From an uncultured Candidatus Saccharimonas sp. (GTDB taxonomy: Bacteria; Patescibacteriota; Saccharimonadia; Saccharimonadales; Saccharimonadaceae), in NCBI GenBank assembly GCA_964531915.1, contig CAZHFQ010000001.1, forward strand, positions 1 to 52,067: a stretch of DNA of 52,067 bases. Direction: 5' to 3'. The translations under genes and the position numbers were made by a program. The notes under the pieces were generated by a model, which saw only the letters and a program-made list of their open reading frames with translations, was not told the origin of the DNA and ran no database searches. Positions within the stretch are counted from its first letter, which is position 1; the number at the start of each line of letters is the position of its first letter. Positions 1,237-17,197 of the stretch are shown piece after piece.

Positions 1237-1239
1237 TTT

Positions 1240-1815: not shown

Positions 1816-1985
1816 TAGCCCATATGCAAATAATAATTTAAGCATTCGAGTGACAAGTCAGGGGACACGGTCTACCTCTTTGGGTGCTTGGTTTGGCTCG
1901 CACTAGCAAACGAATTGCGAACTGCAAGTATTGACTATGATAAACACCAAATTATGCAAATAAAGGAAATTATTGGAAACATAGC

Positions 1986-2642
1986 TTAATTCATCCCTTT
2001 ACATAATTCTTCTGTAAGCAAATGAACTGTCGTTGAAGGGTTTGCATCTACAGGTTTTGTCTTATTTTTGATAGTTTCCTTCAACATCTGTCTAGCTCGT
2101 TTAACTGCTTCGGGATAATTATCTCTGATTCTATCAAAAATATCTTCACCGTGTTTATAGCCACCTAAATGCTTCTTAAGCTTTTCCTCAATATCACGCC
2201 TATGCAACGTTGTTGATACTACTTGAAAGTGAAGTAAAAACCAAAGTTCAAATGCATCATTTGAATAAGCTACCTTTATGCCATTTTGGTTTGCTAAATA
2301 CAATGCCTGATTAAATGTTTCTTTATCATTGGTTTTCTTTAAATCAACATCACGGTCAAAAACCACCCAAGTCTCATCACTGTTTTTATCGTAAGCAAAT
2401 AAAGGCGATTTGATTATGTCTTTTCTTAGTTTAATAGCCTTCTTAACAAGACTAATTTTTGAGTCTTGTTTATCAATAGGTTCAATGCGAGGTCCTGTTG
2501 TGCTACGAAAATGCTCAAAGTATTGAGCTTCCGTCTTACCTTCAGTAACAATCAAAAAAAACTTACGTTCGTCTATTACACCAGAAGGTCTTTTGCCACT
2601 AAGTGCAAACCGACTTCTAGTTTTGCTTTGACGATGAACCAT
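1986..2642 (-). CDS. RloB/AbiLii-like Toprim-type protein
   Basis: RloB-family signatures are FLIVTEGKTEAQYF, TWVVFDRDVD and AYSNDAFELWFLLHF. It lies 8 nt downstream of the ATPase gene on the same strand. Confidence 0.8.
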   Translation of the reverse strand: MVHRQSKTRSRFALSGKRPSGVIDERKFFLIVTEGKTEAQYFEHFRSTTGPRIEPIDKQDSKISLVKKAIKLRKDIIKSPLFAYDKNSDETWVVFDRDVDLKKTNDKETFNQALYLANQNGIKVAYSNDAFELWFLLHFQVVSTTLHRRDIEEKLKKHLGGYKHGEDIFDRIRDNYPEAVKRARQMLKETIKNKTKPVDANPSTTVHLLTEELCKGMN

Positions 2643-2650
2643 ACTGCTAG

Positions 2651-3949
2651 CTAACTTTCTTCAAACTTCAGAACTGGCACTGCACCAAATCTACCCTCTA
2701 GATAGCGTTTAGCGAGCTCATATTCTTTCTTTGTTTTATACTCTGACAGGCATCGCAATATTGAAGCTTCGTTTGCACATTTATCAGCGAACCAAATCTG
2801 GTCTCTTCGTAAGTCGAGCCTACTGCTCTGGGTATTTTTAGTAAGCAAAAATGTTTCGTGGCTCGTAAAGATAAGTTGACTACCGTGTTTATTTAACATG
2901 GGATTTTGAAAAAGCTCAACAATCTTCTTTGTAAGGAATGGGTGTAAACTTGACCCAAGTTCATCAAACACAACAGTCTCGCCATTATTTAAAGCATTGA
3001 GCAATATTACAGCCAAAGCAAAAATCTTCTGAGTGCCCAGTGACTCCTCTCTGAAGTTAAAGAAATGACTCCCTTCCACTTTATTGCCATCATTGTCGTA
3101 AACCGAGTGTTGTGACATAATTTGGTAGTTGAAACCCGAGCCCTTAGCCATAATTGACTTAAGCTCTTCTGGAATACCTGGTGGCAACTCATTGGCATTA
3201 ATTTGCGACCTGTCTATAGACACGTCATTTATGTCTATATCTGCCTTCCTAATGAATTCTATAACTTGTGCCTGAAGTTTCTTATCGTTAAAACAACGGT
3301 CTAACGCATAACTTAATAGGTTATTTGTGTCAGTGCCTTCTATCAGTTTTATTTGGCTACCCACTAATTCGAGTAACCTATGTGAATATTGTTCTGCAAG
3401 ATTTCCAAATACATTGACTGCTAGAGCCGTATTTAGAACACGTTTTACTAAAGGCTCAAGGTCACTCTTAACCGTCTTATCAAATGTGAAGTTGTTGCCA
3501 CTTCGCTCAAAGATAAGTCGTGAACGACGATTTTTTTGCGGTCTATCTATCAGTTCAAGCCATTCAGAAACCACGCCAAAACTATTAACCTCAAAGCCAT
3601 AGTTAAACTGCGAGACAGTATGCTCATCCCACAAAGATATCTCAAAGTGGATAGGCTCTTTACTGCTATTTGTATTTAATAAAAATGGCTGTAAAAGCGG
3701 GTGCTTATTAATAGGAAAATTCGTAGGATTTGCATTCAAAATCGAACTTACCATACAAACCAATGCTTTAATTACATTAGACTTTCCCCCAGCGTTTTGA
3801 CCAAATATACCAGCAACTGGTAAAATATTGTCGCCAAAAGCTGTGGTTGATATTGCGATGCCATCATCCTTTAGAGGCTCTGCTAATAGAGATAAGCTAG
3901 ACGCTTCCTTGAACGACCTATAGTTCTTAATAGTGAAATCTATAATCAT
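2651..3949 (-). CDS. AAA_21/ABC-type ATPase, AbiLi-like (RloA-like)
   Basis: The N-terminus is MIIDFTIKNYRSFK. Walker A is GQNAGGKSN, Walker B is VVFDELGSSLHP, and an H-loop-like FTSHE is present. The track ORF starts at GTG 3958, but ATG 3949 gives the family-typical N-terminus. Confidence 0.8.
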   Translation of the reverse strand: MIIDFTIKNYRSFKEASSLSLLAEPLKDDGIAISTTAFGDNILPVAGIFGQNAGGKSNVIKALVCMVSSILNANPTNFPINKHPLLQPFLLNTNSSKEPIHFEISLWDEHTVSQFNYGFEVNSFGVVSEWLELIDRPQKNRRSRLIFERSGNNFTFDKTVKSDLEPLVKRVLNTALAVNVFGNLAEQYSHRLLELVGSQIKLIEGTDTNNLLSYALDRCFNDKKLQAQVIEFIRKADIDINDVSIDRSQINANELPPGIPEELKSIMAKGSGFNYQIMSQHSVYDNDGNKVEGSHFFNFREESLGTQKIFALAVILLNALNNGETVVFDELGSSLHPFLTKKIVELFQNPMLNKHGSQLIFTSHETFLLTKNTQSSRLDLRRDQIWFADKCANEASILRCLSEYKTKKEYELAKRYLEGRFGAVPVLKFEES

Positions 3950-4450
3950 AGTGTCCACATTATAGCGTATTCTTTTATAAAAAACAATACTTTATGCGAA
4001 AAAATCGCATAATTTGTATAAATATACCAAGAAATAGTTATATTTTGCGATTTACAACTTACATAGCCAATTATTTTTCATAAATGTTAGTCATAGGGGG
4101 GTGGTCGCCCTATATCTTACGATTTTATACTCAGCCGTATATATACTCAATTTTTGGGGCTATTTTTTGACAGGCATTTTTTAATTTGGAAAATTATCTA
4201 TTTCTGGACCTAGTCTGCCCTGATATTTACTATCAACCATAAGCCCATTCTTGTCATAGATATGAGTCTTTGATTTAGTAATTTCTTTATCAAGAAAAGA
4301 TAAAAAATCTTCATATAGTCGACGTGTATCTATATGAACCACATTGCCTTTGAAAATATGCCCTATTATAATGCCACCAGCCGAAGCAGTGACAGACCAG
4401 CATATTGTTTTGTCGCCTTTCTTAATATGTATGAGTCTATCGCTGTGAGA

Positions 4451-4834
4451 ATTACTACCGCTGACTACGACAAATATGTAACAAAATACAAGGCAGAAAG
4501 AGATGAATTGGAATATAAATTGGTTGAATATACTAATAACGACAAGTCATTCATTTTAACCGCCGAACATCTGTTACGACTAGCTCAAAATGCCCAAACA
4601 ATCTTCCAAAGTTCGCAACCTGCTCAAAAGAACAAAATCCTGAAGACCCTACTTGCGAACTGCAAAATAGACCAAAAAAGGCTTCAACTTAACCTGTTAA
4701 AGCCCTTTGGTAGCATCATTGCTGACGCCAAATCTCAATCTTGGCTCCCCTTAGTGGACGTACTTCGCAACTTTGACTCAGGGCAAGTAAGTTTAGCCAC
4801 TACAGGCCTGGTTTCCACACGCCAAATAGATTAG
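4451..4834 (+). pseudogene. 3' remnant of a large serine recombinase (paralogue of 13107-14576)
   Basis: The track ORF 4334-4834 aligns colinearly with the C-terminal ~125 aa of the intact recombinase from residue ~40 onward. Matching pairs include ISEELYNKKFEEYRS / ITTADYDKYVTKYKA, HLLNLAKDAPKLF / HLLRLAQNAQTIF, KRSMINLVLSN / KNKILKTLLAN and NWLRRLD / SWLPLVD. The catalytic and zinc-ribbon domains are missing, and the stop codon of the intact copy is lost. Confidence 0.7.
4742..4759. repeat. Diverged copy of the tRNA-Asn 3' end (displaced att remnant)
   Basis: TGGCTCCCCTTAGTGGAC compares with TGGCTCCGGCGACTGGAC at 14547-14564. It sits at the same position relative to the recombinase C-terminus as in the intact copy. 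Confidence 0.55.
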
Positions 4835-6011
4835 TTGCTTCTGGCTTATCCGAAGAAACCGGTTGGATGTAAGCATGTATTTCGGAGCATTTGTTTGGTA
4901 TTTTTATAGCGTTTGACCTATCCCCAAGAGAAGTCCAAACAACGCTACCGCCAGCTATTTGCCACCCAAACCAGTATGCCTTGAAACCCTTATCCGCCGT
5001 GCCATCCGAATAGAACGCGACTGCTTTTAGGTTTACGTTGTCATCGACGATTGCTATGCGACGTATATCCTGTATGCCTCGTAATTTTGGTTTATATGAA
5101 ATCATTAATTCCTTAACTTGTCTCGCAGAAAGTCTTTGCGAATAATTATCTTTTCTAAGATAGGCATCGTCCTTGTAGAATATTACTTCTCCAGTACTTC
5201 TAAATACGGCAGGTATTTTAATGCGCATTATCATTTTTGACTTAAATGATATAAGTTGTATTCTCAATTTCGACACATCAATGTCAGTATTACTACTAAT
5301 ATAGTCAATCATTTTTGACCTGTTTGTATCAATATCCTTTGGCAAACCGAAGGCGAAAAATTTACCGATTATATGATCTGCAACGTCACTCGATAGAATA
5401 TCCCTCTCTTCCGCAATCCCAATATATAGGTCACCGCCATCAGTATTCGCAAATGCAGAAATAGTCTTAGCTATACCCTCCCTAAGATTAAAAGATTTTT
5501 TACATTCAATATGACCGTTTTCGTCGTTGGCAAGAGCAGTACTAAGACCGTTTTCATTATTTGATAATAGTTTATTTTTCACTTTTAAACTAACTAGACG
5601 AGGTATGTGATTAGCTGTTTCAAATCCACTAAGGCACTCTCTGATTATTTTTGAAACATCAGAGCTTTTCATATCACCAAGCAAGCCCACTCTTTGGCTA
5701 TATTTTAACTTCACCAACCTAGAAACAATAAATGTCTCTCTATGCATCCTTTCATAACGCAATTGATCTTCCGAATAATTTGAAAGATTTTTAATCTCAT
5801 CCAGTTCCTGAATAGCCTTCTTTACACTGTTACAATTATACTCTATGAAGCCGTCTATATTATTATTAATCAAAGCTTCGTCGGCATGTCGTCGTAACGA
5901 CGTAAAACCATCTTTAAACTCCACAATCCCATACTTTTGCTTTGATTTACTGACTGACATCTTATTATTTATATTAGCACTGAAATACCCTAAACTCATT
6001 ATAAGTTGCAC
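4800..6011 (-). CDS. Schlafen/AlbA_2-domain protein
   Basis: A central AlbA_2 signature is HIECKKSFNLREGIAKTISAFANTDGGDLYIGIAEERD. The flanking N- and C-terminal regions have no motif I recognise. The start may be Met18 (5960). Confidence 0.7.
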   Translation of the reverse strand: MQLIMSLGYFSANINNKMSVSKSKQKYGIVEFKDGFTSLRRHADEALINNNIDGFIEYNCNSVKKAIQELDEIKNLSNYSEDQLRYERMHRETFIVSRLVKLKYSQRVGLLGDMKSSDVSKIIRECLSGFETANHIPRLVSLKVKNKLLSNNENGLSTALANDENGHIECKKSFNLREGIAKTISAFANTDGGDLYIGIAEERDILSSDVADHIIGKFFAFGLPKDIDTNRSKMIDYISSNTDIDVSKLRIQLISFKSKMIMRIKIPAVFRSTGEVIFYKDDAYLRKDNYSQRLSARQVKELMISYKPKLRGIQDIRRIAIVDDNVNLKAVAFYSDGTADKGFKAYWFGWQIAGGSVVWTSLGDRSNAIKIPNKCSEIHAYIQPVSSDKPEATNLFGVWKPGL

Positions 6012-6064
6012 TGAAAGTGTTGTTGAAGTATGTCCTAATTATTTCGGTGTATTTTGCAAAAGAG

Positions 6065-7336
6065 CTAACTTTCGATTTTTTCGATAGAACTCAGTTCGGT
6101 AATTGGCTTAACGATTTCTTGAACTCTAGGGTTATATTCTCCAGTTAGGGTCGCTATTGCTGCTAACCCTATGTGATAGCCAAGGTTTACAGGAACTGCA
6201 TTTCCAATTTGTTTGTATTGTGAAGACATAGATCCCATAAATAACCATTCATCTGGAAATGTCTGAATACGCGCATATTCTCTTACATTTAATGGTCGAG
6301 TCTCTTCAGGATGACACCTTTCAGTTTGTTTTTGTCCTGGGTTACATGTCAGTGTTAGGCTTGGTTCATTCCAAGAAAGTCGTCGAGCCATTCCTGTCTT
6401 GCCTCCTCCTAGATAAAAACTACCCATCATGTATTCTTTTTGGATTTCTAAAGGCAGGTCTCTCCAATATCCACTTTCAGGCACTAAAGAGAGCACTTTC
6501 TTTTTCTTTTCAGAATATTCTTGCCCTTCCGATTTTGGCTTATCGCCGATAGCTTCTCTCAGTGATATCGTATAGTCTCTCTCACGTGGAAAAACAATAG
6601 GATTATCTATATCCTTGCGAACTGCAAATATTAATAATCTTTCTCGCTTCTGTGGAACATCAAGATATTGAGCACGTAAAACCTTATATGCCACATTGTA
6701 GCCCAAGCCCTGTAGGGTTTTGATCATTGCCCTAAGTGTCTTGCCTTCATCGTGCATAACAAGACCTCTTACATTCTCCCCGATAGCAATTTTAGGCTGC
6801 ACTTCTTTTATAGCTCGCGCGAACTGGTAGAATAGGGTTCCTCTAGTATCCGCGAAACCTCTACCTCGACCCGCATAACTAAAAGCCTGACAAGGGAATC
6901 CACCCTCTATTAGATCCACCCTTCCTTTATAATGACAAAAATCGATGCTTGCTACATCATCGTGAATGACGTTCCAATTTGGTTTATTCTTAATTAAAGT
7001 GGCAGCAGCATCTTTATTAAACTCATTAAGCATAATGTGCCTTACTCCTGCATTCTCAAGACCAAGGGCAGTTCCACCGGCTCCGGCGAATAAATCAATA
7101 GCTGTAAATGGTGATTTCTTCTTTGATTTTAGGATTTTATAGTTATTCCCTGTGTGTGTTCCATTAACTTTAGAATATATGCGCTGAACTTCATTAATAT
7201 TAAAAAGTCGATAATTTTTGTTTGAACGTATCGCCTTAATGAGACCCTTCTTTTCCCATCTGCGTATCGTATCTACCGATACGCCTATTTTTTTCGCCGC
7301 CTCTACAATCGTCAATAAGTCATCAATCATAACCAT
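6065..7336 (-). CDS. DNA (cytosine-5)-methyltransferase with an N-terminal MerR-type HTH
   Basis: C5-MTase motifs are FAGAGG (I), GGFPCQAFS (IV), ENV (VI), QKRERL (VIII) and GNAVP (X). The first ~55 aa (LTIVEAAKKIGVSVDTIRRWEKKGLIKAIRSNKNYRLF) form a MerR-like HTH. Confidence 0.9.
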   Translation of the reverse strand: MVMIDDLLTIVEAAKKIGVSVDTIRRWEKKGLIKAIRSNKNYRLFNINEVQRIYSKVNGTHTGNNYKILKSKKKSPFTAIDLFAGAGGTALGLENAGVRHIMLNEFNKDAAATLIKNKPNWNVIHDDVASIDFCHYKGRVDLIEGGFPCQAFSYAGRGRGFADTRGTLFYQFARAIKEVQPKIAIGENVRGLVMHDEGKTLRAMIKTLQGLGYNVAYKVLRAQYLDVPQKRERLLIFAVRKDIDNPIVFPRERDYTISLREAIGDKPKSEGQEYSEKKKKVLSLVPESGYWRDLPLEIQKEYMMGSFYLGGGKTGMARRLSWNEPSLTLTCNPGQKQTERCHPEETRPLNVREYARIQTFPDEWLFMGSMSSQYKQIGNAVPVNLGYHIGLAAIATLTGEYNPRVQEIVKPITELSSIEKIES

Positions 7337-7344
7337 ATTATTGC

Positions 7345-7373
7345 AGTAACCATTGCATAATGCAAGGGTTACT
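7345..7373. promoter_or_regulatory. 29-bp near-perfect palindrome between the REase stop and the MTase start (candidate operator or RNA hairpin)
   Basis: The sequence is AGTAACCATTGCAT-A-ATGCAAGGGTTACT, with arms complementary at 13 of 14 positions. A GGTTACC site also occurs at 8105-8111 in the region upstream of the REase gene. Confidence 0.4.
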
Positions 7374-8076
7374 ATGACAATATATATGCACGGTTAAATA
7401 ATTCTATAAATACTGTGGAGTTACGAAGCTCAGCTTCCTCTACATTTAAGATACTAGCAAGAATAGTGGGTAAAACTTCATATAGCTTCTTAAGAGCATC
7501 CTCGTCTCCTGAAGCTAGCGCGTAAAAGCTTTTCCCGTCGATTTTCGCAATATCACTCCTTCGTGGTCTTGGTGTCCCTCTTTCGGAAGGTGTGAACGGT
7601 AATTCATATGGACGCGGCGTCTTAGGTATAACTTCCACAAGATATGCTTTTTTAATATTATCTCCGCTATAGTCTAAGTGTCTCTGTAGGTTATCATACA
7701 CGCTCAAGGCGCTTCTAGCATTCATTGTGTTATGTTTATTTTTGACTTCAGCAATAACCTTCAATGACTCATTTTTAACATCGTAGCTACCACCTCTTCC
7801 TGCGTTGTCCCAACCAGGCATATAACCTAGGATGTCCTGATGAAAATCACCAAGAGCGTTTGAAAATGCTTTTTGAATTTGCCGTGATTTTTCTTGCTCC
7901 ATCCACTCATCGGTCGATACACCCTGACGAGCAGCGTCAACCTGTGCAGAAAACGGGTCAATTACGTTCCTATACGGGTTTTTTTCCACTCTATTCTGGG
8001 CGGATAATGCCGCATTAACTAGAGTTCTCGTTGCTTGATATAAACTATCATCATTTATGAATGGTAAAAGTGACAT
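7372..8076 (-). CDS. Putative type II restriction endonuclease (PD-(D/E)xK; possibly Eco47II-like family)
   Basis: It lies directly upstream of the C5-MTase on the same strand with a 35-nt gap. A D...E-x-K-like core is SYDVKNESLKVIAEVKNKHNTMN. The 234-aa size fits small type IIP enzymes. The family assignment is from memory only. Confidence 0.5.
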   Translation of the reverse strand: MSLLPFINDDSLYQATRTLVNAALSAQNRVEKNPYRNVIDPFSAQVDAARQGVSTDEWMEQEKSRQIQKAFSNALGDFHQDILGYMPGWDNAGRGGSYDVKNESLKVIAEVKNKHNTMNARSALSVYDNLQRHLDYSGDNIKKAYLVEVIPKTPRPYELPFTPSERGTPRPRRSDIAKIDGKSFYALASGDEDALKKLYEVLPTILASILNVEEAELRNSTVFIELFNRAYILS

Positions 8077-8166
8077 ATATTATTTACTTCTTCTTATACT
8101 ACAAGGTTACCATAGAAAACAAATTATAGGCTATATAAGGCTGGGATATTATCACAACTTTCTATT

Positions 8167-8922
8167 CTATCTGGTAACCGTGAAGGCGCTTGTGTCACGC
8201 TTGAGTTTATCATATTGCCCGGGTTGACTTTGGAAGAAGCGTTTAATTAACTTAAGGTCTCTTTTAGATATTTTTCGCTCACCAGCTTTAATACTTATTA
8301 AATCAAGATTGTCTACACTAATTCGTGCATTAATACCCCTCTGTTTCGACAGAACATGAAAATGTGCAGGTTGGTGATCGCCGGGGAATATATCAATACT
8401 AAAATCTCCTATATTGCATACATTGTATTTGCGTACCGTCTCTTTGCCATTATCATCTAAATAATGTGAGTTTAAATAGGCATTTAGCGCTTCGCGTATT
8501 CCCATATTTTCTGGCTCGTTGAGAAGCATTTTCATATCGTTCAGCGCCGACAGTAGATCAACATTTATCAATTCTTTATACTGATCAAAATATGGGTTTA
8601 TTTCACCAATCTTATATTTTTGCCTTTGTTCGTCATTGTCAAAATGTACCGCAACTATGCCTACGGCGATTTCTCCGTCGTTCAGCTTAAAATCGACGGC
8701 GCTCAGAACAGCTCCTTGATCTCCCGCAGTTTCATCGTGGTTAAATCGCATTGGGAGTAACTTATTTTTTATTTGCCTAACGACATCAACCACCGCCTTT
8801 TTCGAAAAACGCTCCCCATGTTTATCTAAATGAGACGTCACAACGATCGCCACCTCAAAACGTTCGTCGTTATTTATAAACGGAAAACCAACACAGTGAG
8901 GATTTGCCACTAGATCATTCAT
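8167..8922 (-). CDS. Fusion protein: unknown N-terminal domain (~170 aa) plus C-terminal DUF4160
   Basis: The C-terminal IDIFPGDHQPAHFHVLSKQRGINARISVDNLDLIS...LKLIKRF matches the DUF4160 pattern (DHxPxHFHV). The N-terminal part (TSHLDKHGERFSKKAV...LPMRFNHDE...) has no secure match. Confidence 0.6.
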   Translation of the reverse strand: MNDLVANPHCVGFPFINNDERFEVAIVVTSHLDKHGERFSKKAVVDVVRQIKNKLLPMRFNHDETAGDQGAVLSAVDFKLNDGEIAVGIVAVHFDNDEQRQKYKIGEINPYFDQYKELINVDLLSALNDMKMLLNEPENMGIREALNAYLNSHYLDDNGKETVRKYNVCNIGDFSIDIFPGDHQPAHFHVLSKQRGINARISVDNLDLISIKAGERKISKRDLKLIKRFFQSQPGQYDKLKRDTSAFTVTR

Positions 8923-8924
8923 AC

Positions 8925-10199
8925 TTAATTGTTGTCTTTAAACATTGAAACGTACGGATGATTATACCAGTCTCCATATACTTCATGGACTAAATCCAGA
9001 TGCTTTTTAGTCATTTTATTCTCAATGTCGTCAAGGTATTCCAAAAAATCCTTCTTCCTGCTGAGAGAGAAAATATTATCCGAATAGCCGAGTTTAGTCC
9101 TTATTGGTTCGTCACAGAGTCTGGTTTGAAACTCATTGTCAATAAACATCGCGTCACAGTAAGGTAGCAATGAAGATATAAACTCCACATCATTTAATGT
9201 CCCTTTATTATAAGGCTTTTTTCTATCATTTGAAGCATCACGAGCCATAGAAGCATATAGCATTGATGATATTTTTATATGAGGGACTTCTTTTATTTGG
9301 GTTGAAAAATATTCATTTATTTTTATTGTCGCTTTCTTAGAGTCAAGCCCCTCGCTTTTTAGTATTTGGAACAGTTGGATAAGAGTAACCTCTCTTTCGG
9401 TAGGCAAAATACTCTCAAGAGAATATGGGTTTTTACGTCGATTATCTACCATTTGCTCTAGAAGCCCCCAAAAACTCTTACCTACTGCAGATTGCTCTTC
9501 CTGTAGCCAATAGTTGAACCCCTTGCCTTTTTCAGATTTCCATCTTTCAAAAAGAGGGAGTAGCACATCATCAATACCCTTTCGTTCAAGGATAATTTGA
9601 TTAACTAAATCTGAACCGTAATCCGGGAGGCTAACTGAAAAGATCAGCCTATCACTCCAATCACTGAGTCGACCGTATATTACTCTACTCACATCCAACA
9701 CTATCGTGTTCATGCCAAGCCACGACTTAAAGTCATTTTCAATCTGGAAACGCTGTATTGTCCCATTTGTATAAAATCTTATCCCATTAGAAAAATGCTC
9801 TGTGATACGCTTAAGAGCATCCCTGTTTTCAGCCGTAAGTGTTTCATCCCTATGGGTCGAAGACGAAGGACATACTATCAACTGCAGTTTTGATAACCTG
9901 TCTAACTTTTCAAATAAAGATTTATAAAATGAAGTGTCTGTACCAGATCTAACTCTAATGTTTGGATTTATTGATTTCATCATATTACTTAAAACGAACT
10001 GATCGAGATAAATAATCTTTCTTTTTAACTTTGGTAATTCATACCCTTGTGTATGCCAGCAAGCCCTACAACGACGTGTATAGCCTGCACCCACACTTAA
10101 TAAAACACCGTATTCATTTTTCCTACATTTTGGGCACTTCTTGTAAGGTGGCTTGATAAATATACGAGGATCAATTGTTATAGTCTTTTTATCACTCAC
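8925..10199 (-). CDS. Hypothetical protein with an N-terminal CxxC...CxxC zinc ribbon
   Basis: CPKCRKNEYGVLLSVGAGYTRRCRACWH is followed by ~370 aa with conserved-looking acidic motifs (IIYLDQF, STHRDET, CDAMFIDNEF). It lies 2 nt from the downstream gene, so they form an operon. Confidence 0.6.
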   Translation of the reverse strand: MSDKKTITIDPRIFIKPPYKKCPKCRKNEYGVLLSVGAGYTRRCRACWHTQGYELPKLKRKIIYLDQFVLSNMMKSINPNIRVRSGTDTSFYKSLFEKLDRLSKLQLIVCPSSSTHRDETLTAENRDALKRITEHFSNGIRFYTNGTIQRFQIENDFKSWLGMNTIVLDVSRVIYGRLSDWSDRLIFSVSLPDYGSDLVNQIILERKGIDDVLLPLFERWKSEKGKGFNYWLQEEQSAVGKSFWGLLEQMVDNRRKNPYSLESILPTEREVTLIQLFQILKSEGLDSKKATIKINEYFSTQIKEVPHIKISSMLYASMARDASNDRKKPYNKGTLNDVEFISSLLPYCDAMFIDNEFQTRLCDEPIRTKLGYSDNIFSLSRKKDFLEYLDDIENKMTKKHLDLVHEVYGDWYNHPYVSMFKDNN

Positions 10200-10253
10200 A
10201 ATACCCTAATATTACATCAGGGGTAGTTATAAATCTATCTATTCTGTCAAAAA

Positions 10254-11261
10254 CTAGTACCCAAGAGAGTCTCTAAAAAACTGTTGAACTTCGTCTGTCG
10301 TAAAAACATAATTAGACTCATCTTGTGGGTATCTAAGCTCGACAGGCTCCTGTAGCTCCTGAGGTGCAATATTATCCGCGTTCTTGCGCAATATCCACTT
10401 ATCATATAGTGATAACTGGCTCATAGCTATTTCTTTACTGGTTTTTTCTTGTGTTGCCTTTGCCTCTTCGTATTTAGAAATTATTGGGTTACACTTACTC
10501 CGAACGCCGTCCATAAACTTATTAGTCGTATCCTCTAATCTTTGTTCCTCCTCGTCAGTAATTTCAGAGTAAGTAGTTTTATAGTCATAATGGCTTAACT
10601 TAAACTCACCGATACGATAACTCATAGTAATCCACTCAACTCTGGTTGAGCCGTTTTCGACACTATATCTGCATTTATCATACTCATCGAAGTTCTTTTC
10701 CATATATGACACCGCCGAGCTGTTGTCGCTAAGAGACTCTGGGCTAACTGAACCTTTTATCCCATGTAAACCAGTTAATATAACCAAAATGACAATGATT
10801 GCAAGACCTATCGGCTTAAGGATTTCTGCTTTCATACCATCCCACTTCGTTGCAGGCTTACTGCTTACGTGTGTCTTCCGCCAAACAACTAGACCTATAA
10901 TACTTATTGTTTTTGGATGTTTACCATATTTATTCGCGTCTTCCTTTCCAGCTTCAAATAACAGCCATAGTCCAAGAATGAAGTTAACAAATGGTACAAA
11001 ATAACCGATTAACCACCAGCCACTCATGCCCAAGTCGTGCAGACGTCGTATAACGCAAAATGAATGATAAACCCACCATAAAAGAGCGATTAGGAAAAAC
11101 AATGGGCTGGACGATGTGTCGTCGAGACCGGAAAAACCAAACGTCCCCAATACTCCACATAACAACCCAAATAAGATCATCGTGACAAATAACGATACTA
11201 TTGATGTCAATATAAAAGTGGATCTATTAAATCGTCCTTCTTCTAAACCAAGTATTTTCAT
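10254..11261 (-). CDS. DUF805-family membrane protein with a C-terminal soluble extension
   Basis: The DUF805 hallmark is RRLHDLGMSGWWLIGYFVPFVNFILGLWLLFEAGKEDANKYG, set among several hydrophobic helices. An extra TM and a ~170-aa tail follow. A strong SD (AGAGGGGG) precedes the ATG. Confidence 0.7.
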   Translation of the reverse strand: MKILGLEEGRFNRSTFILTSIVSLFVTMILFGLLCGVLGTFGFSGLDDTSSSPLFFLIALLWWVYHSFCVIRRLHDLGMSGWWLIGYFVPFVNFILGLWLLFEAGKEDANKYGKHPKTISIIGLVVWRKTHVSSKPATKWDGMKAEILKPIGLAIIVILVILTGLHGIKGSVSPESLSDNSSAVSYMEKNFDEYDKCRYSVENGSTRVEWITMSYRIGEFKLSHYDYKTTYSEITDEEEQRLEDTTNKFMDGVRSKCNPIISKYEEAKATQEKTSKEIAMSQLSLYDKWILRKNADNIAPQELQEPVELRYPQDESNYVFTTDEVQQFFRDSLGY

Positions 11262-11294
11262 TTGAACCCCCTCTATCGTTTAGGACTGTCCAAT

Positions 11295-11321
11295 AAAAAA
11301 GGACAACCTCTCTAGGTTGTC
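11295..11321 (-). terminator. Intrinsic-terminator-like hairpin 34 nt upstream of the DUF805 gene start (possible attenuator)
   Basis: On the minus strand the sequence reads GACAACCT-AGAG-AGGTTGTC followed by C-TTTTTT. That is an 8-bp stem, a 4-nt loop and a U6 tail, lying inside a 550-nt ORF-free region. Confidence 0.45.
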
Positions 11322-11810
11322 TACACCATCACAAGATTTGCATCCTATGCTTTCGAGAAGTTGCCCATTTATGGATGCAAACTCATCGAAAATCGACTAG
11401 TTTTAATATTATGATGATGTAGACTATTCCATAATAACTTAAACAGAGGAGATATTAAACTACTGTCTATTGATAGGCTGCAAAAATATCATAAATCCGT
11501 AGACGACTTAGAGTGAGAGAGTGAATATAAGAAGAGGGGGTGGGGGGGTGTAATTGTGCGTGAATAGAACCGTAGTTGTTATGTGTAGATAAATAAAAAA
11601 AGGGGGTAGTTGCATGCACTACGACCAATTAACCCACTCCGACTAAATAGACCTGCAACGGTAGTAACTGTGGTGCATAAAGAACTTCATCTTCGACACT
11701 ATTTATACATATTTTGGTACAATTTTGTTCACCCAATACACATCCTAATACTACGTAAACCTAATTAGGTAATTATAATTATACCTTTTTGCTATATAAT
11801 AACCTCAGCT

Positions 11811-12554
11811 ATGGACCCAAAGCAGTTTCTTCATGAGCGGGATATTATGTATGTGGTTAACAAACTACACTCGGCTTATATAGAAATAGCTCCACCTTTC
11901 AAAAAACATACATACCGCCTGTCGGAAAACCGATCGATAGACGCCCCTTCCTTTAAAGAACAGCGCGAAATATTAAAATCGTTAAGAGAACAATCGATAA
12001 TTGAAGTGTCAAAATGTTTAAACAAATTAGATAAGCCGACCTCATTCGAAAAAGCATGGGTATACGAATACAAACGGACTAAAAATAACAAGCTTAAGGA
12101 TTATTACTGGGATTTGTTATTAAAGCGCCAAGAAGGTCTATATAACCACGATGCTTTGATAGAAAAAGGTACTCTTGTCCTACACATAGAGGGGCAATAC
12201 ATATACGTAGTGTACCCTTACCATGCTCTCCGTATTAATCGAAAACCTTTAAAAAATGGCGGGTTCCCCCAGATATTATTCGAACATTTGATAAATAAGT
12301 CCAATGGCGAAACGGTTACTCAAGAAAGTCTAGATTATACGACTTCACGCAGTTTTATCGATATTGTTAATAGTGTAGGTTTTACGGGGATTATACGCTC
12401 CAAGTTCATACCTGAGGTAACTAAAAAATCCATAAGACTGTTGCGCGAGGTCGAAATGAATGTAAAAGACTCTACTAAACTGTACCGACAATTGATCGAA
12501 GACCCTTTTAATAAAGAATTGTACGAAAACTACCTCGAGAATATAGATAACTAA
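11811..12554 (+). CDS. Hypothetical protein (island-borne, upstream of the recombinase)
   Basis: A 247-aa ORF with no motif I recognise, on the same strand as the recombinase module. Confidence 0.5.
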   Translation: MDPKQFLHERDIMYVVNKLHSAYIEIAPPFKKHTYRLSENRSIDAPSFKEQREILKSLREQSIIEVSKCLNKLDKPTSFEKAWVYEYKRTKNNKLKDYYWDLLLKRQEGLYNHDALIEKGTLVLHIEGQYIYVVYPYHALRINRKPLKNGGFPQILFEHLINKSNGETVTQESLDYTTSRSFIDIVNSVGFTGIIRSKFIPEVTKKSIRLLREVEMNVKDSTKLYRQLIEDPFNKELYENYLENIDN

Positions 12555-12618
12555 ACACGAATAACGCGATACAACTCGTTACGCGTCTTAGGGGTGGTTT
12601 ACAGGTTATTATCAATGC

Positions 12619-12933
12619 ATGGTCGATGACAATAAACTATACATGAATACAATCAAAGACGAGGCAAAGTCTAAGATTGATCCTTTTTATGAAGAGAAAA
12701 TAGCCTCATATTTATCAGATAAGTTAAATGCGGAAGATGAAATTAGTCTAAAGTATTACCGTATTCTTGCTCATCATTTGACTAAACCGCAAATCGATCG
12801 TTTAGTCGGCACAGCTGTGGAGCTTGGGAGAAACCCCGCTCGATACTTCTGTGTTATTAGCAAAATCGAGCTTGAAAAAGCAAGGTACAAAAGGAGGGGG
12901 TGTGAAAACCAACCAACTCTCGACCCTGATTGA
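12619..12933 (+). CDS. Hypothetical small protein (possible DNA-binding or recombination-directionality candidate)
   Basis: A 104-aa ORF immediately upstream of the recombinase. The C-terminal helical segment is LTKPQIDRLVGTAVELGRNPARYFCVISKIELEKAR. The functional guess rests on position only. Confidence 0.35.
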   Translation: MVDDNKLYMNTIKDEAKSKIDPFYEEKIASYLSDKLNAEDEISLKYYRILAHHLTKPQIDRLVGTAVELGRNPARYFCVISKIELEKARYKRRGCENQPTLDPD

Positions 12934-13033
12934 GTACTTTGAATTACTTATAAAGATTGAAGCCCAAGATGAGAAAGATGTATAATAGAAGGGCTCCCCA
13001 ATATATACGAGATATTTTTAATTTCTGCTCTTA

Positions 13034-13087
13034 ATGGGCGGTTGTGCCAGAAAGTCTTGTATTTTTTGGGGAGCCACAACCGTCCAT
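13034..13087. promoter_or_regulatory. Inverted repeat in front of the recombinase gene
   Basis: ATGGGCGGTTGTG (13034-13046) pairs with CACAACCGTCCAT (13075-13087) at 12 of 13 positions. A second pair is GGGCTCCCC (12991-12999) with GGGGAGCC (13068-13075). It ends 20 nt before the ATG at 13107. Confidence 0.35.
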
Positions 13088-13106
13088 TTTAAGTAGGAGA
13101 AGTTAT

Positions 13107-14576
13107 ATGAAAGCATTTTTAATAGCAAGAGTGTCCACCGATGAGCAGGCAAACTCACTCCCTGCACAAGTTTACAAACTTAAGGACTACGCTCTCCGTA
13201 ATGATTACAGCTACGAACTAACTGAGATAAAAGAAAGTGCCTATAAGGGCAGCCGCGAAGATTTTAAACTAATCATAGAAAAAATTAAGTCCTGTAGTGA
13301 ATTAGTTATTGTAGTATTCGATAAAGTTGATCGCTACACGCGCGATATTAGCTCAGACATCGTCAAGCAGCTCGAAACTTTATATCGTATGGGGAAAATT
13401 GAGCTTCACTTCCCATCAGACAACCTAACAATTACTAAAAACTCATCAGCTCCTGATTTGATGCGCCTAGGACTTGGTATGGTATTGGCAAAATATTACT
13501 CAGACGCAATAAGCGATAATGTAAAAAGGCGTAACGAACAAAAAAGACGCGATGGAGAATGGTGCGGTAGAGCGCCAATTGGTTACATTAATAAAGATAG
13601 GCCGGACGGTAAAAAATGGGTTGAGATTGATCCAATATACTCGCAAGCAGTCCGCGAAGCTTATGAATTATATGCGAGTGGCAATTCTTCATTACGCGAA
13701 ATCGCAAAAGAATGGAGTACCCAATGCGGGCACAAAGTAGGCTCTAGTAAAATAGAGCAAGTTCTCAAAAACCCATTCTATTACGGAGAAATGCGCATAA
13801 AAGGAGAGTTGTACCCCCATAAGTATGAGCGCCTAATAACCAGAGGCCTCTTCGAACAAGTTAAGGCAGTACGAGAGGGTTATTCCGTAAAGCCTCATCG
13901 TTGGGGCGGACTACCCTATTCATTTCGCGGTCTTATTTACTGTGCTGATTGTGGTTGTCGCATTACTTTCGAAAAAAAGAAAAAAGGTAAATATATTTAT
14001 GGGCATTGCACTCAAGCAAAAGGGAAACATAACGCGAAGTATGTGCCCGAAAATGAATTGATTAAACAGATGATGGTAATCTTCAAAAAGGTTCAGATAC
14101 CTGGATTGGCCTACCAACAGGTTAGCGAAGCCCTGCGTGCTTCTCATGAGGATAAAAAGCGCACATACCACGCTCAAGCGCGATCTATTGACACTGAAAT
14201 TAAAAAATATCAAACAAGGACAGAAAAGGTTTATGAAGATTATTTGGACGAGAAGATCTCCGAAGAGCTATATAACAAGAAGTTCGAGGAGTACCGATCA
14301 AAAGTTAAACTTCTTCAGGAACGCCGTTTAAATATCGAACTTACTGAAGATACTTACTACTCAAGTGTTTCCCATCTGTTAAATCTTGCAAAAGACGCAC
14401 CAAAGTTATTCATAAAGGCAAATCAAGAGCAAAAACGGTCAATGATCAATTTAGTACTTTCGAACTTACGGCTAGACGGTAATCAACTGAGGTGGGAATA
14501 CAAAAAGCCATTCGAAATGATGGCTTTTTGTAACAAATCTTCAAATTGGCTCCGGCGACTGGACTCGAACCAGTAA
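13107..14576 (+). CDS. Large serine recombinase (integrase)
   Basis: MKAFLIARVSTDEQ is the resolvase-type catalytic Ser motif, with DRYTRD, the recombinase domain (GRAPIGY) and a zinc ribbon (CADCGC...GHC) plus a coiled-coil C-terminus. An SD (AGGAGA) precedes ATG 13107, so the GTG 13044 extension in the track is unlikely. The last 30 nt overlap tRNA-Asn. Confidence 0.9.
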   Translation: MKAFLIARVSTDEQANSLPAQVYKLKDYALRNDYSYELTEIKESAYKGSREDFKLIIEKIKSCSELVIVVFDKVDRYTRDISSDIVKQLETLYRMGKIELHFPSDNLTITKNSSAPDLMRLGLGMVLAKYYSDAISDNVKRRNEQKRRDGEWCGRAPIGYINKDRPDGKKWVEIDPIYSQAVREAYELYASGNSSLREIAKEWSTQCGHKVGSSKIEQVLKNPFYYGEMRIKGELYPHKYERLITRGLFEQVKAVREGYSVKPHRWGGLPYSFRGLIYCADCGCRITFEKKKKGKYIYGHCTQAKGKHNAKYVPENELIKQMMVIFKKVQIPGLAYQQVSEALRASHEDKKRTYHAQARSIDTEIKKYQTRTEKVYEDYLDEKISEELYNKKFEEYRSKVKLLQERRLNIELTEDTYYSSVSHLLNLAKDAPKLFIKANQEQKRSMINLVLSNLRLDGNQLRWEYKKPFEMMAFCNKSSNWLRRLDSNQ

Positions 14577-14621
14577 CCTCGAAGTTAACAGCTTCTTGCT
14601 CCACCATTGAGCTACGCCGGA
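14547..14621 (-). tRNA. tRNA-Asn (anticodon GTT), CCA encoded
   Basis: Hand-folded cloverleaf: UCCGGCG-UA-GCUC-AAUGGUG-GAGC-A-AGAAG-CUGUUAA-CUUCG-AGGUU-ACUGG-UUCGAGU-CCAGU-CGCCGGA-G-CCA. It is 75 nt with a 7-bp acceptor stem, a canonical T-loop and a GUU anticodon. Confidence 0.9.
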
Positions 14622-14860
14622 ATAATTGTTTTTATGAACTCTCGCCCTCTACCTGATTTGAGACCTTTTTCTCTCTTCAGAGCTTCCGAACGAGTGGTAA
14701 CTAATTCTTCGTGTATTAGCTCCCATTCGCCAGGAAATCTTGATGTATATGATTTAAATGTATGATTATTATGCTTTATTAAACGTCTTTTTATATCATC
14801 GGTCTGACCAATGTAATACTTATTCGAAGTCTTATTGTAAATAACATACACGTGGTACAT
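14612..14860 (-). CDS. GIY-YIG nuclease superfamily protein (UPF0213/YhbQ-like, 82 aa)
   Basis: MYHVYVIYNKTSNKYYIGQTDDIKRRLIKHN...ALKREKGLKSGRGRE shows the GIY-YIG, R and E motifs. The ATG at 14860 is preceded by GGTGGAG. The TAG stop lies inside the tRNA (nt 8-10). Confidence 0.85.
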   Translation of the reverse strand: MYHVYVIYNKTSNKYYIGQTDDIKRRLIKHNNHTFKSYTSRFPGEWELIHEELVTTRSEALKREKGLKSGRGREFIKTIIPA

Positions 14861-14864
14861 ATTA

Positions 14865-14917
14865 TCTTGCTCCACCTTCGCCTTCGCTAGATAGCGAACG
14901 GCGAAGAGCTACGCCGG
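14865..14917 (-). repeat. Partial duplicate of the tRNA-Asn 5' portion (nt 2-13 and 17-28) interrupted by a 29-nt palindrome
   Basis: On the minus strand the sequence is CCGGCGTAGCTC-[TTCGCCGTTCGCTATCTAGCGAAGGCGAA]-GGTGGAGCAAGA. Both 12-mers are identical to the tRNA (14609-14620 and 14594-14605). Confidence 0.8.
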
Positions 14918-14942
14918 TCCGCTGTACAGCAGAACAATGGGT

Positions 14943-14971
14943 ATTATATCCCAAGACCCCTTGTAGGACAA
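14943..14971 (-). promoter_or_regulatory. Sigma70-like promoter upstream of the tRNA fragment/GIY-YIG/tRNA unit
   Basis: The minus strand reads TTGTCC, a 17-nt spacer, then TATAAT. It lies ~25 nt upstream of the duplicated tRNA 5' fragment. Confidence 0.5.
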
Positions 14972-14997
14972 CTCTGTTTATAGAAGGCAATGATTTA

Positions 14998-15333
14998 CTA
15001 AGACTTTTTGCCAAACATCGACATTAGTTTGCCAAAGAATCCAGATGGTTTTGGCTGTTCAGCTGCAGCCGGAGCTGTTTGGATTGGCTGCGGTTGCTCG
15101 TCAGCAACTGGTGGCTGGAAGGTTGCTACTGGCTGTGGTGGAATTGGTTCTGTTGAAACCGCTGGCTCTGCAGGCTGTGGATCGGATTGCGGTTGAGAAA
15201 ACCCGTCTACCATTGGCGCCGCTGGCTCTGTGGCCATCGAGTCTTGTGATGTTGGTGGTTCTGGTATTGGTGTTACTGGTGGTGGCGTTGCCCCCATGTT
15301 GTTTTCAGGAACGTCTTCATTGTTTGGTTGCAT
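14998..15333 (-). CDS. Pro/Gln-rich low-complexity hypothetical protein
   Basis: A 111-aa ORF that is visibly more GC-rich than its surroundings, with a C-terminal FFGKLMSMFGKKS. Both plus-strand ORFs across it look like composition artefacts. Confidence 0.45.
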   Translation of the reverse strand: MQPNNEDVPENNMGATPPPVTPIPEPPTSQDSMATEPAAPMVDGFSQPQSDPQPAEPAVSTEPIPPQPVATFQPPVADEQPQPIQTAPAAAEQPKPSGFFGKLMSMFGKKS

Positions 15334-15417
15334 ATATCCCCTTTTCTGATAGATTTAATGCCTGACTCTAATATAACAAAATAAACGTTAGAGTTATATA
15401 CATATTCTAAATATTCA

Positions 15418-15867
15418 CTAGGAAATGTTACTAGATTTTAGATAATCTATGAGCCGCGTTTTCATAGCCACATGCGCCCCGTCTATCCCCAGAATTTTCA
15501 AAGCCCCGATTAAAACATAAAGTTCATCGAGCGTTTCTTGATCATAAGCTTGTTCCAGAGCATTAAATTTTCTAGTAACAGCATTAACTATCCACTTTTC
15601 TTGTGCTGGTGTTGGGCCTTTACGGACAGGGGAATCGTCAAGACGCGTGGTTACAACCTCAAGAGACCTAGCGGAACGATCCCGTTTTTGCAAATAACCC
15701 TTTGCCATTAGCCCATCAATATGAACCGCAACGGTTGAGACTGACTTATAACCTAAGGCTCGCATTATTTCACGATAACTCGGTCCATAGCCATGCCCCT
15801 GTATAAAGCCATCAACAAAGTTTAAAAGTTCTCTTTGGCGTTTACTTGATCGTTCTTTATTCATCAT
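15418..15867 (-). CDS. LexA-N-terminal-type winged-helix regulator lacking the S24 peptidase domain
   Basis: SKRQRELLNFVDGFIQGHGYGPSYREIMRALGYKSVSTVAVHIDGLMAKGYLQKR matches the LexA DNA-binding domain. No Ala-Gly/Ser-Lys autocleavage module follows. The start ATGATG overlaps the stop of the upstream gene. Confidence 0.7.
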   Translation of the reverse strand: MMNKERSSKRQRELLNFVDGFIQGHGYGPSYREIMRALGYKSVSTVAVHIDGLMAKGYLQKRDRSARSLEVVTTRLDDSPVRKGPTPAQEKWIVNAVTRKFNALEQAYDQETLDELYVLIGALKILGIDGAHVAMKTRLIDYLKSSNIS

Positions 15868-17197
15868 GAGTCCTTCGCCCTGTAGGGGCACCGAGTGCAA
15901 CTGCGGCTAATCCCCACCAGATTATTGAAACCGCATCATCAGTCCAAACTGGTAATAATATACCAATTATAGCAAGCCCAATACCACCTGCAAATATACC
16001 TAATGCCAGCCAGTCACGCCTCAGACTCCACAAGCCAAGTAATATTGACACAAATATATACATAAATATTGCTAAACCTAGCCAGCCAATCTCATGGTTA
16101 ATAAATAAATATTGATTTTCGATTATCACTGCCTTATTTCCGATTATTGAAGCCGAGCCAGTACTACCAATACCACCGCCTAATGGCTGGTGAATTAAAT
16201 GATTGAAGCCATCATCAAGTGAGCTTGCATGGCCTTCGTTCGAACTTATACTGCTGCCACCAGATGGATTTTCATGCAATATAACGTTTGATATAAAAGA
16301 CGTATCACGGGCTAAAAACAGTCCACCAAACACTAAAATCATCAAAATACCGATAGTTATCCACTTTTCTGTGGATAACTTGCGCCAAGTTGTCACCGCT
16401 AACACTATAGATATTGAAATAGCGGTTCCGATCAATGCACTTCGCGAATAACTAGCCCATAATGCCACCAGCCCACCAGCTGACAAGATAGCGACAATAA
16501 TCAGTTGCCATTTATCTTCGCTGTACAGCGAATTAATTTTTTTCTTTGCGATTGCAGCAACTAATATTGTCAGCACTATCCCAGCATATGCCCCCAACGG
16601 ATTCGGCCCTCTAAAAGTACCGTTTATCCGAATAAAGGCTGGGTTTTTATCAATGGTTAAATATGGGCTAATTGTGTCTAGGTTATAACCGATACATTTC
16701 AAAACATCATTTGGTAAAATAAATACTTGCATCAAAGCGAAGATTAACGCGATCAGCGCCCCAGCAATACCTACCGTAATAAACAATTTTCTTTGGGCTG
16801 GGAAAAGTCGAAGTGCAATATAAACCAAACCAAAAAATAGTAAATAGCGTAAATCAATCGCCAGACCCGCAGCCCAAGCAGTCCATCCTTGACTCATATA
16901 AAATGACAAAACTAGATGCAGTGCAGCATAAATAACAATTGCAATGATTGTTGGACTTTGCAATATCTTGAACTTCCTATTTTTATAAATCAAAAATAAC
17001 GCCATAATCCCAGCGACTAGCATCATAATTTCTTTCCAAGATTTAATCAGCAACTCATAATTTGGCCATAAAGTACTAAACCCAACACTTAAAGGTGTAT
17101 GTAAAATAACCCCACCGAATATTACCAGCAAAATTGTTATGTAAATTTTCCCTGCCAACCCTAAAGATTCTGACTTATGTATTTTACTACCTACCAT
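15857..17197 (-). CDS. O-antigen ligase/polymerase-like (Wzy_C) polytopic membrane protein
   Basis: It has about 10-12 hydrophobic helices and the typical SYSRSALIG loop region. Confidence 0.7.
   Translation of the reverse strand: MVGSKIHKSESLGLAGKIYITILLVIFGGVILHTPLSVGFSTLWPNYELLIKSWKEIMMLVAGIMALFLIYKNRKFKILQSPTIIAIVIYAALHLVLSFYMSQGWTAWAAGLAIDLRYLLFFGLVYIALRLFPAQRKLFITVGIAGALIALIFALMQVFILPNDVLKCIGYNLDTISPYLTIDKNPAFIRINGTFRGPNPLGAYAGIVLTILVAAIAKKKINSLYSEDKWQLIIVAILSAGGLVALWASYSRSALIGTAISISIVLAVTTWRKLSTEKWITIGILMILVFGGLFLARDTSFISNVILHENPSGGSSISSNEGHASSLDDGFNHLIHQPLGGGIGSTGSASIIGNKAVIIENQYLFINHEIGWLGLAIFMYIFVSILLGLWSLRRDWLALGIFAGGIGLAIIGILLPVWTDDAVSIIWWGLAAVALGAPTGRRTHDE

Follow-up and report, generated by a model that had tools for sequence, protein, structure and literature searches.

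A DUF4160-fusion gene found behind diverse defence genes, and a solitary zinc-ribbon protein family, in a mobile island of an uncultured Candidatus Saccharimonas

We have followed up three co-directional genes in a 52,067-nt stretch of DNA from an uncultured Candidatus Saccharimonas sp. (GenBank assembly GCA_964531915.1, contig CAZHFQ010000001.1, positions 1 to 52,067; hereafter the window), in which a DUF805 membrane protein (gene 1), a zinc-ribbon protein (gene 2) and a protein ending in a DUF4160 domain (gene 3) are carried side by side on a mobile island. An earlier, sequence-only reading had treated this trio as a single three-gene system. The trio is instead one recently shared block and not a conserved system, as it recurs solely on one other contig, L001, in the form of a near-identical block. 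The main new result is the neighbourhood pattern of gene 3, homologues of which lie, often with overlapping stop and start codons, behind genes that are unrelated to one another and largely of defence type. With a probability of roughly one half, we read the trio as stacked independent cargo modules in which gene 3 is a rider toxin, gene 2 a candidate defence hydrolase and gene 1 a passenger.

Among 84 gene 2 loci, L001, which carries an 86–88% identical copy of the trio block, is the only one with a neighbouring gene 3 homologue or DUF805 gene; the other 83 loci are without gene 3. A DUF805 gene adjoins one of the 80 gene 2 homologues from GTDB and, seen from the side of gene 3, a gene 2 homologue is found upstream only in the window/L001 block among approximately 30 contexts. 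The trio is therefore not conserved as a unit elsewhere, an outcome that the sequence-only reading had itself named as counting against its proposal. At the DNA level, window positions 11323–10953 and 10200–8183 are 72.5% and 85.8% identical to L001, respectively, and similarity stops directly after gene 3. The block in L001 (L001:2637-5694) is followed by open reading frames (ORFs) of 73, 209 and 731 aa in place of the Eco47II restriction-modification (R-M) pair of the window, indicating that the downstream cargo has been exchanged; the 731-aa protein carries a GHKL-ATPase-like "ITNSDDS" motif. No match to the trio as a system is present in PADLOC-DB v2, with zero matches for genes 2 and 3 and one marginal match for gene 1, in agreement with the earlier statement that it corresponds to no named defence system.

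Relatives of gene 3, which form a rarer family than those of gene 2, were obtained from a protein search, which returned seven, and from a metagenome scan with the two best motifs of the family, which returned 61 loci, ∼36 of them full length. The homologue starts within 20 nt of the upstream stop codon in 19 of ∼30 non-redundant contexts, often as a 4-nt ATGA overlap, and lies more than 45 nt from it in roughly one third. The upstream genes are unrelated to one another. Pfam and PADLOC place 8 of the 12 scanned partners among defence-type genes (Table 1), including a protein with DUF4209, a domain assigned to the HEPN superfamily (PMC3710099). The remaining four are an 819–833-aa family and a 235-aa protein, both without matches, a SEC-C protein and gene 2 itself, and hhalign detected no relation of gene 2 to the other upstream partners. 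Given the 2-nt gap in the window, gene 3 is probably translationally coupled to gene 2. No conserved small ORF that could be a downstream antitoxin follows the gene 3 homologues in ∼30 contexts, nor was DUF2442 found there, and gene 3 is absent from 50,697 phage genomes and 72,556 plasmids.

Several individual contexts are of interest in their own right. The 819–833-aa family (L090:1024-3504, L096:2500-5001, L108:2527-4986, also L091 and L110) is encoded immediately before gene 3 homologues, at −4 or +2 nt, carries a zinc-ribbon-like CPHC...CPLC motif, has no Pfam or PADLOC match and is a candidate defence gene. The zinc-binding SEC-C motif occurs in a 236-aa protein (L094:916-1626) that precedes a gene 3 homologue and is unrelated to the gene 2 family. 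An HsdS gene follows the homologue in L123 and a HARE-HTH protein precedes it in L118, while a 296-aa protein without a Pfam match is encoded directly after gene 3 homologues in two otherwise different contigs (L117:4019-4909 and L121:1497-2387). One homologue (L125:2930-5240) is split by an IS3-type insertion sequence (IS; orfA/orfB, 3484-4946), leaving its N-terminal domain and DUF4160 half 1.5 kb apart.

Residues 181–231 of gene 3 match DUF4160 (PF13711; E = 2.3e-5, 25.0 bits against a gathering cutoff of 23), and the domain is joined to another one, as the sequence-only reading had recognised. DUF4160 was matched in 28 of 29 family members (best E = 7e-9), and alignment of the 29 sequences shows D182, H183, H187, H189, S192 and R195 to be invariant in this half of the protein. 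No ATPase or other Pfam domain besides DUF4160 rises above threshold in the family, and gene 3 has no NCBIfam, PADLOC or PDB sequence match. The AlphaFold2 (AF2) model has a predicted local distance difference test (pLDDT) score of 81 and a predicted template modelling (pTM) score of 0.51, which is low, for a two-domain protein; a Foldseek search with it gave no significant match. In the DhiTA pair, which has been demonstrated by experiment, DUF4160 is the toxin component DhiT and inhibits growth (PMC8198452), and it is also one of the 15 C-terminal effector families of NsnC in the Menshen system (PMC12065111). Gene 3 shares PF13711 and the His-rich motif DHxPAHFHV with DhiTA of Dickeya dadantii (DUF4160/DUF2442). 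DhiT, however, is a small protein of one domain whose gene precedes that of a DUF2442 antitoxin, whereas gene 3 encodes 251 aa with an N-terminal domain (N-domain) of ∼135 aa and is followed by a 90-nt gap and a restriction endonuclease (REase) gene, with no antitoxin gene. The logic of an N-terminal recognition domain and a C-terminal effector is common to NsnC and gene 3, and both occur in defence islands. They differ in that the N-domain of NsnC is an inactive PIN domain and that of gene 3 is beta-rich and protease-like; furthermore, neither a ParB-DUF262 NsnA nor an NsnB ATPase is adjacent to gene 3, no ParB/DUF262 gene is present in the island and the NsnC models of PADLOC do not match gene 3.

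Likeness of the N-domain to phage head maturation proteases appears in several comparisons. The residues H31, D33, H62, G70, D82, E84 and N109 are invariant among the 29 sequences, and the motifs G-I-A-S...D..gE, P-x-L-x-x-H-D and D-G-E-y-a-L resemble those of head maturation proteases. Peptidase_S78 (PF04586) was the sole recurrent Pfam family besides DUF4160, being detected below threshold in 7 of 29 members (best E = 0.016), and PHROGs gave weak matches to "head maturation protease" and "major head protein" families. Alignment of the N-domain profile with that of ten phage proteases (HK97 gp4 and nine diverse others) by hhalign yielded a probability of 79% (P = 1.5e-5, score 37.6, 50 columns), compared with 0.2–0.4% for reversed alignments, at most 3.9% in 40 column shuffles and less than 1% for unrelated alignments. 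The conserved His in the H-D motif of the proteases, which we take to be the catalytic His65 of HK97 gp4, is matched by H62 of gene 3. The segment with the SxGF motif, presumably that of the nucleophile Ser114 of gp4, falls in an alignment gap, with the invariant N109 of gene 3 nearby. Gene 3 aligns with the first ∼55 residues of the S78 core, comprising the G-x-A-S strand, the D..gD/E motif and the His, but is without the Ser segment and the C-terminal half, has the additional invariant pair H31/D33 and is not part of a phage head module. Homology to S78 proteases is likely but not established; if homologous, the N-domain would be an inactive protease.

As we favour it, gene 3 would be a single-protein toxin module in which the C-terminal DhiT/DUF4160 domain is the growth-arresting effector. 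The N-domain would derive from a phage head-maturation protease, having kept the His and lost the segment of the Ser nucleophile, and would act as the regulatory or sensing part, recognising a component of phage head assembly. The family would have no antitoxin of its own and would be expressed by translational coupling from the preceding defence gene, gene 2 here and R-M, Lamassu-like, HEPN or RelA/SpoT genes elsewhere. Coupled in this way, the family would act as a back-up abortive-infection "rider". PrrC and RloC are ABC-ATPase and anticodon-nuclease proteins that are embedded in type I R-M loci and have a specific R-M partner. Gene 3 likewise resides in or beside R-M loci (90 nt from the REase gene in the window; with type IIG, type I M+S, N6_N4 methyltransferase and HsdS genes elsewhere) and plausibly shares a back-up role when the first line fails, but it has no domain in common with PrrC/RloC and its upstream partners are very diverse. 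A bolder version, which we regard as possible but doubtful, takes genes 2 and 3 as two new modules, gene 3 being a single-protein abortive-infection system that senses head assembly and gene 2 a stand-alone anti-phage hydrolase with an undescribed fold. The dead protease domain would then sense the capsid delta domain, scaffold or procapsid and unleash the DUF4160 toxin, and gene 3 would spread without a promoter of its own, tied to the 3′ end of whatever first-line defence gene is at hand. What the data show directly is that the genes exist, how large their families are, which domains they match, what surrounds them and that the trio is not conserved; that they are toxic, sense phage, cleave nucleic acids or act against phages is, throughout, what we infer.

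Gene 2 would fill the slot held by R-M, structural maintenance of chromosomes (SMC), HEPN or RelA/SpoT genes in other loci, and because this slot is occupied by known defence genes elsewhere we consider gene 2 a candidate defence hydrolase. It would combine a zinc ribbon for nucleic-acid binding with an alpha/beta domain bearing an invariant constellation of Asp, Glu, His, Ser and Cys residues, and we take it to be a metal-dependent hydrolase, and probably a nuclease. The protein has no Pfam, NCBIfam, PADLOC or meaningful PHROGs match. Its family, of proteins of ∼430 aa, is large: a word-seeded protein search returned 788 full-length homologues, and an exhaustive hidden Markov model (HMM) search returned 1,880 clusters at 50% identity with E ≤ 1e-3, 693 of which reach E ≤ 1e-30. 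GTDB species representatives contain 140 loci in many phyla, with members in Saccharibacteria, other Patescibacteria, Planctomycetota, Acidobacteriota, Verrucomicrobiota, Gemmatimonadota, Bacillus, Cohnella and others; the nearest relatives are 56–88% identical and include metagenome-assembled genomes of Saccharibacteria, which by itself points to a probable Patescibacteria/Saccharibacteria-like host for the window. Each motif quoted in the sequence-only reading was found, and the zinc ribbon that it described as CPKC-x20-CRAC exists, with a spacer of 18 rather than 20 residues. All four ribbon Cys are invariant in an alignment of 27 sequences, as are D66-Q67, T147, D337, Y347, D354 and the motif C110-P111-x-S113-x-x-H116-x-x-E119.

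The AlphaFold2 model of gene 2 (pLDDT 89, pTM 0.87) has a beta ribbon at its N-terminus and a core in which beta and alpha elements alternate, together with a helical insert of ∼150 residues. Foldseek found nothing at E ≤ 1e-3 in PDB or BFVD, the sole structurally matching part being the ribbon, which is like Elf1/NrdR-type ribbons. Pfam searches on 27 family members gave weak zinc-ribbon matches, and SEC-C in two members with N-terminal extensions (P0032 and P0102). Distant relatives provided no bridge to a known family, the best 150 of the HMM matches, which are those listed, all being full-length members of the family itself, and neither the full nor the core-only profile matched a PDB sequence. 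A loose likeness to PIN nucleases, suggested earlier from the acidic motifs, was not borne out by Pfam or Foldseek: even at E ≤ 1 neither gene 2 nor any of 26 relatives matched a PIN family, and no PIN, FEN or NYN structure is among the 50 Foldseek matches listed. What the invariant D/E/D pattern offers is at most a weak hint of PIN-like identity. Gene 2 shares an alternating beta-alpha core with VapC-like PIN nucleases, in an order of secondary structure compatible with their fold (three-layer alpha/beta/alpha with a 5-stranded parallel sheet), and its invariant acidic residues D66 after beta1, E119 in the post-beta2 helix and D354 after a late strand, plus D337, may correspond to the four acidic residues of the PIN active site. 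It differs from them in having Thr (T147) at the third canonical acidic position and in carrying the helical insert of ∼150 residues and the N-terminal zinc ribbon.

Gene 2 is a solitary gene, because the genes immediately beside it in 80 loci, 148 in all, represent 143 different Pfam families. Serine recombinases (4), ResIII (3) and aminotransferases (3) are the most frequent, and the range extends over recombinases, ResIII, methylases, transposases, a phage portal, GcpE, citrate synthase and ATP synthase; PADLOC assignments scatter like those of Pfam. Flanking ORF sizes and gaps vary freely over the 84 loci. When the ORFs within 5 kb of 80 homologues were clustered all against all, no conserved partner emerged: the largest real cluster is that of serine recombinases (11 loci), others being XRE regulators, aminotransferases and R-M parts, and the remaining large clusters are antisense shadow ORFs. 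Of 72,556 plasmids only 2 carry gene 2, and none of 50,697 phage genomes does; four relatives are on IMG/VR contigs. One copy stands alone on a Rhizobium conjugative plasmid, beside tra genes and with wide intergenic gaps. A TM2+Ltp membrane protein precedes the gene 2 homologue in L002, with an unrelated 220-aa protein after it, and BrnT/BrnA follow the homologue in L003.

The DUF805 assignment of gene 1 stands, with residues 8–114 matching PF05656 (E = 2.9e-17, 63.6 bits against a gathering cutoff of 25.7) over profile positions 5–111 of 111, including the RRLHDxGxSGWW motif. Gene 1 thus shares the full model with DUF805 inner-membrane proteins of the E. coli YhaH/YhaI type, and differs from them in a fourth hydrophobic, transmembrane segment (∼residues 150–170) followed by a C-terminal tail of ∼165 aa. 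Neither the full protein nor the tail has a homologue besides itself among 5.8 billion proteins, and the tail accounts for ∼630 nt that are extra relative to its closest relative, in L001. The earlier suggestion that this soluble tail makes gene 1 plausible as a membrane effector finds no support, as the tail is without homologue and missing even in L001. A single weak PADLOC match of the tail to NsnC (E = 0.0016) was treated as chance. We know of no link between DUF805 and phage defence. We consider gene 1 a passenger, tied to genes 2 and 3 by recent common ancestry alone.

Several observations weigh against the stacked-module reading. The functions proposed for all three proteins are read from sequence. 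In L001, the one relative available, the whole trio is shared as a single block, with homology ending exactly after gene 3, and short-range co-inheritance is therefore indistinguishable from functional linkage. Tight translational coupling could mean that gene 3 works with its upstream gene. Likeness of the N-domain to S78 proteases is modest, with no Pfam match at family threshold and no protease found by Foldseek, which likewise matched gene 2 to no nuclease or hydrolase in PDB or BFVD. The gene 3 loci were recruited by two peptide patterns of one subfamily, from metagenome contigs. Finally, many neighbours of gene 2 are housekeeping genes, and its defence role follows by association only.

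A different account takes genes 2 and 3 for a two-gene system, one case of a "variable first gene plus common effector" whose upstream protein controls the toxin or is guarded by it. PrrC, an anticodon nuclease held latent by the restriction enzyme EcoprrI, is a precedent. Such an arrangement is consistent with upstream gaps of −4 to +3 nt that recur in many independent gene 3 contexts, with gene 3 homologues in or beside R-M loci (L115, L123, L097, L109, L103 and the window), with the lack of a separate antitoxin gene and with the co-conservation of genes 2 and 3 at 86% DNA identity in L001, against 72.5% for the DUF805 part. The upstream partners, however, share no domain with one another or with gene 2, the gap is longer than 45 nt in about a third of contexts, 83 of the 84 gene 2 loci are without gene 3, and the N-domain of gene 3 is 30–40% identical across contexts, which makes a specific partnership with each partner hard to picture. 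We hold this account to be unlikely while giving it some weight. That all three genes act together, as a DUF805 membrane effector, a zinc-ribbon sensor or nuclease and a DUF4160-fusion toxin, is very improbable. In its favour, all three genes point the same way at short distances, no terminator-like site was found within the trio, the gene order is the same in L001, and in L002 the gene 2 homologue is preceded by a different kind of membrane protein, TM2 + Ltp. Against this, the trio exists in one near-identical contig only, DUF805 is beside 1 of 80 GTDB gene 2 homologues, the tail of gene 1 has no homologue and is absent in L001, genes 2 and 3 overwhelmingly occur apart and PADLOC gave no match; the neighbourhood data largely refute a three-gene system.

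A benefit in defence may also be lacking altogether, gene 3 being a selfish stabilising element (a toxin with a cis-inhibitory N-domain, or a homing-type nuclease gene) and gene 2 unrelated cargo of a mobile element, for example its nucleic-acid processing enzyme. DUF4160 is a proven growth-inhibiting toxin of a toxin-antitoxin pair (PMC8198452), the conserved His/Asp cluster of gene 3 fits a metal-dependent nuclease, gene 3 homologues lie precisely after the stops of unrelated genes with one copy disrupted by an IS, and gene 2 homologues are found near serine recombinases, transposases and conjugation genes. We judge this distinctly unlikely, given that the upstream hosts are strongly biased to defence genes (8 of 12 scanned) and are not a random sample of island genes; neither repeats beside gene 3 nor target motifs were seen, although no search aimed at them was made. 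Descent of genes 2 and 3 from a decayed prophage, with the protease-like domain as a head-morphogenesis remnant, is scarcely credible. The weak likeness of the N-domain to head maturation proteases and head proteins and the four gene 2 relatives on IMG/VR contigs would suit it, but the island has no portal, capsid or terminase gene and both proteins are unmatched in the 50,697 phage genomes. Moreover, the architecture of N-domain plus DUF4160 is kept with invariant residues, which argues for a selected function and not for decay.

In the papers returned by full-text searches on DUF4160 and on prohead protease with abortive infection, neither the gene 3 architecture nor the rider pattern appeared to be described; toxin-effector modules and single-gene defence candidates in islands are as such of a familiar kind. 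If the stacked-module reading is correct, the gene 3 family would represent compact layered immunity, a back-up suicide module that travels with first-line systems, and bacteria would be reusing a phage head-assembly protein as a sensor. DUF4160 would gain a second setting that is open to experiment. The family of gene 2 is large and widespread but not represented in Pfam, PADLOC or the structure libraries searched, and its annotation would cover thousands of proteins. For the mining of defence islands, the trio illustrates that tight gene spacing alone does not define a system.

Table 1. Positions of the features in the window, and genes found immediately upstream of gene 3 homologues on other contigs
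Feature	Position or contig	Strand	Details
Fic	1240-1815	opposite to trio	PADLOC PDC-S04
AbiLii	1986-2642	same as trio	
AbiLi	2651-3958	same as trio	
ORF without assignment	4334-4834		166 aa
Schlafen/AlbA_2 protein	4800-6011	same as trio	403 aa
MerR-fused C5 DNA methyltransferase	6065..7336	-	Pfam DNA_methylase E = 6e-79; PADLOC MTase_II
Eco47II-type REase	7372..8076	-	Pfam RE_Eco47II E = 4e-53; PADLOC REase_II; 90 nt downstream of gene 3
Gene 3	8167..8922	-	251 aa, ATG start
Gene 3 C-terminal DUF4160 (DhiT-type toxin/effector) domain	8170..8445	-	Pfam PF13711
Gene 3 N-domain	8548..8865	-	Residues ∼20-125; distant likeness to HK97-type prohead proteases (Peptidase S78), N-terminal half
Gene 2	8925..10199	-	424 aa, GTG start
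Gene 2 N-terminal four-Cys zinc ribbon	10035..10148	-	Residues 18-55; C22, C25, C44, C47
Gene 1	10254..11261	-	335 aa, ATG start
Terminator-like hairpin + T-run	11302..11321	-	Consensus scan; 40 nt upstream of gene 1 start codon
Large serine recombinase	13044..14576	+	Pfam Resolvase, Recombinase, Zn_ribbon_recom
tRNA-Asn	14547..14621	-	ARAGORN
Type IIG R-M enzyme	L097, L109		Upstream of gene 3 homologue
Type I M+S fusion	L115		Upstream of gene 3 homologue; KAP NTPase after gene 3 homologue
Type II/III N6_N4 methylase	L103-L107		Upstream of gene 3 homologue
LmuB-like (Lamassu-like) SMC ATPase	L102		Upstream of gene 3 homologue
RelA/SpoT protein	L124		Upstream of gene 3 homologue; PADLOC PDC-S33
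HEPN AbiU2	L105		Upstream of gene 3 homologue
HEPN DUF4209 protein	L006		Upstream of gene 3 homologue; PDC-S39

The three ORFs were found on the minus strand as earlier described, co-directional and spaced by 54 nt (genes 1 and 2) and 2 nt (genes 2 and 3). Pfam, PADLOC and ARAGORN confirmed the type II R-M system on one side of them and the recombination module on the other, where the 3′ end of the serine recombinase ORF overlaps that of the opposite-strand tRNA-Asn gene by 30 nt. With AbiL, Fic, Schlafen and R-M genes present together with the serine recombinase and tRNA-Asn, the description of this place as the defence slot of a mobile island was a fair one. Portal, capsid and terminase genes are absent from the island according to the ORF list and Pfam. 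Judging from its translation, the left end of the window resembles the N-terminal part of a P-type ATPase gene, and given that reading the island would span roughly from 400–1240 to 14546, or ∼13.5 kb. No direct repeat of at least 16 nt that could be an attachment (att) site was found in positions 1–16000, and no word of at least 10 nt is common to the tRNA region and positions 1–1500; the lack of an att-like repeat is compatible with integration by a serine recombinase. Two plus-strand ORFs (247 and 104 aa; 11811–12933) in the interval between the trio and the recombinase gave no Pfam, NCBIfam or PADLOC match and may be regulatory or excision genes of the island. Just outside tRNA-Asn is a Pro/Gln/Glu-rich, low-complexity ORF of 111 aa (14998–15333, minus strand), which is doubtful as a real gene. 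A consensus scan detected no terminator-like site inside 8167–11261, and co-transcription of the trio is possible. An intergenic region of 549 nt (11262–11810), without a match in Rfam, separates gene 1 from the divergent gene at 11811, and the hairpin within it could be an attenuator or mark the end of a small transcript.

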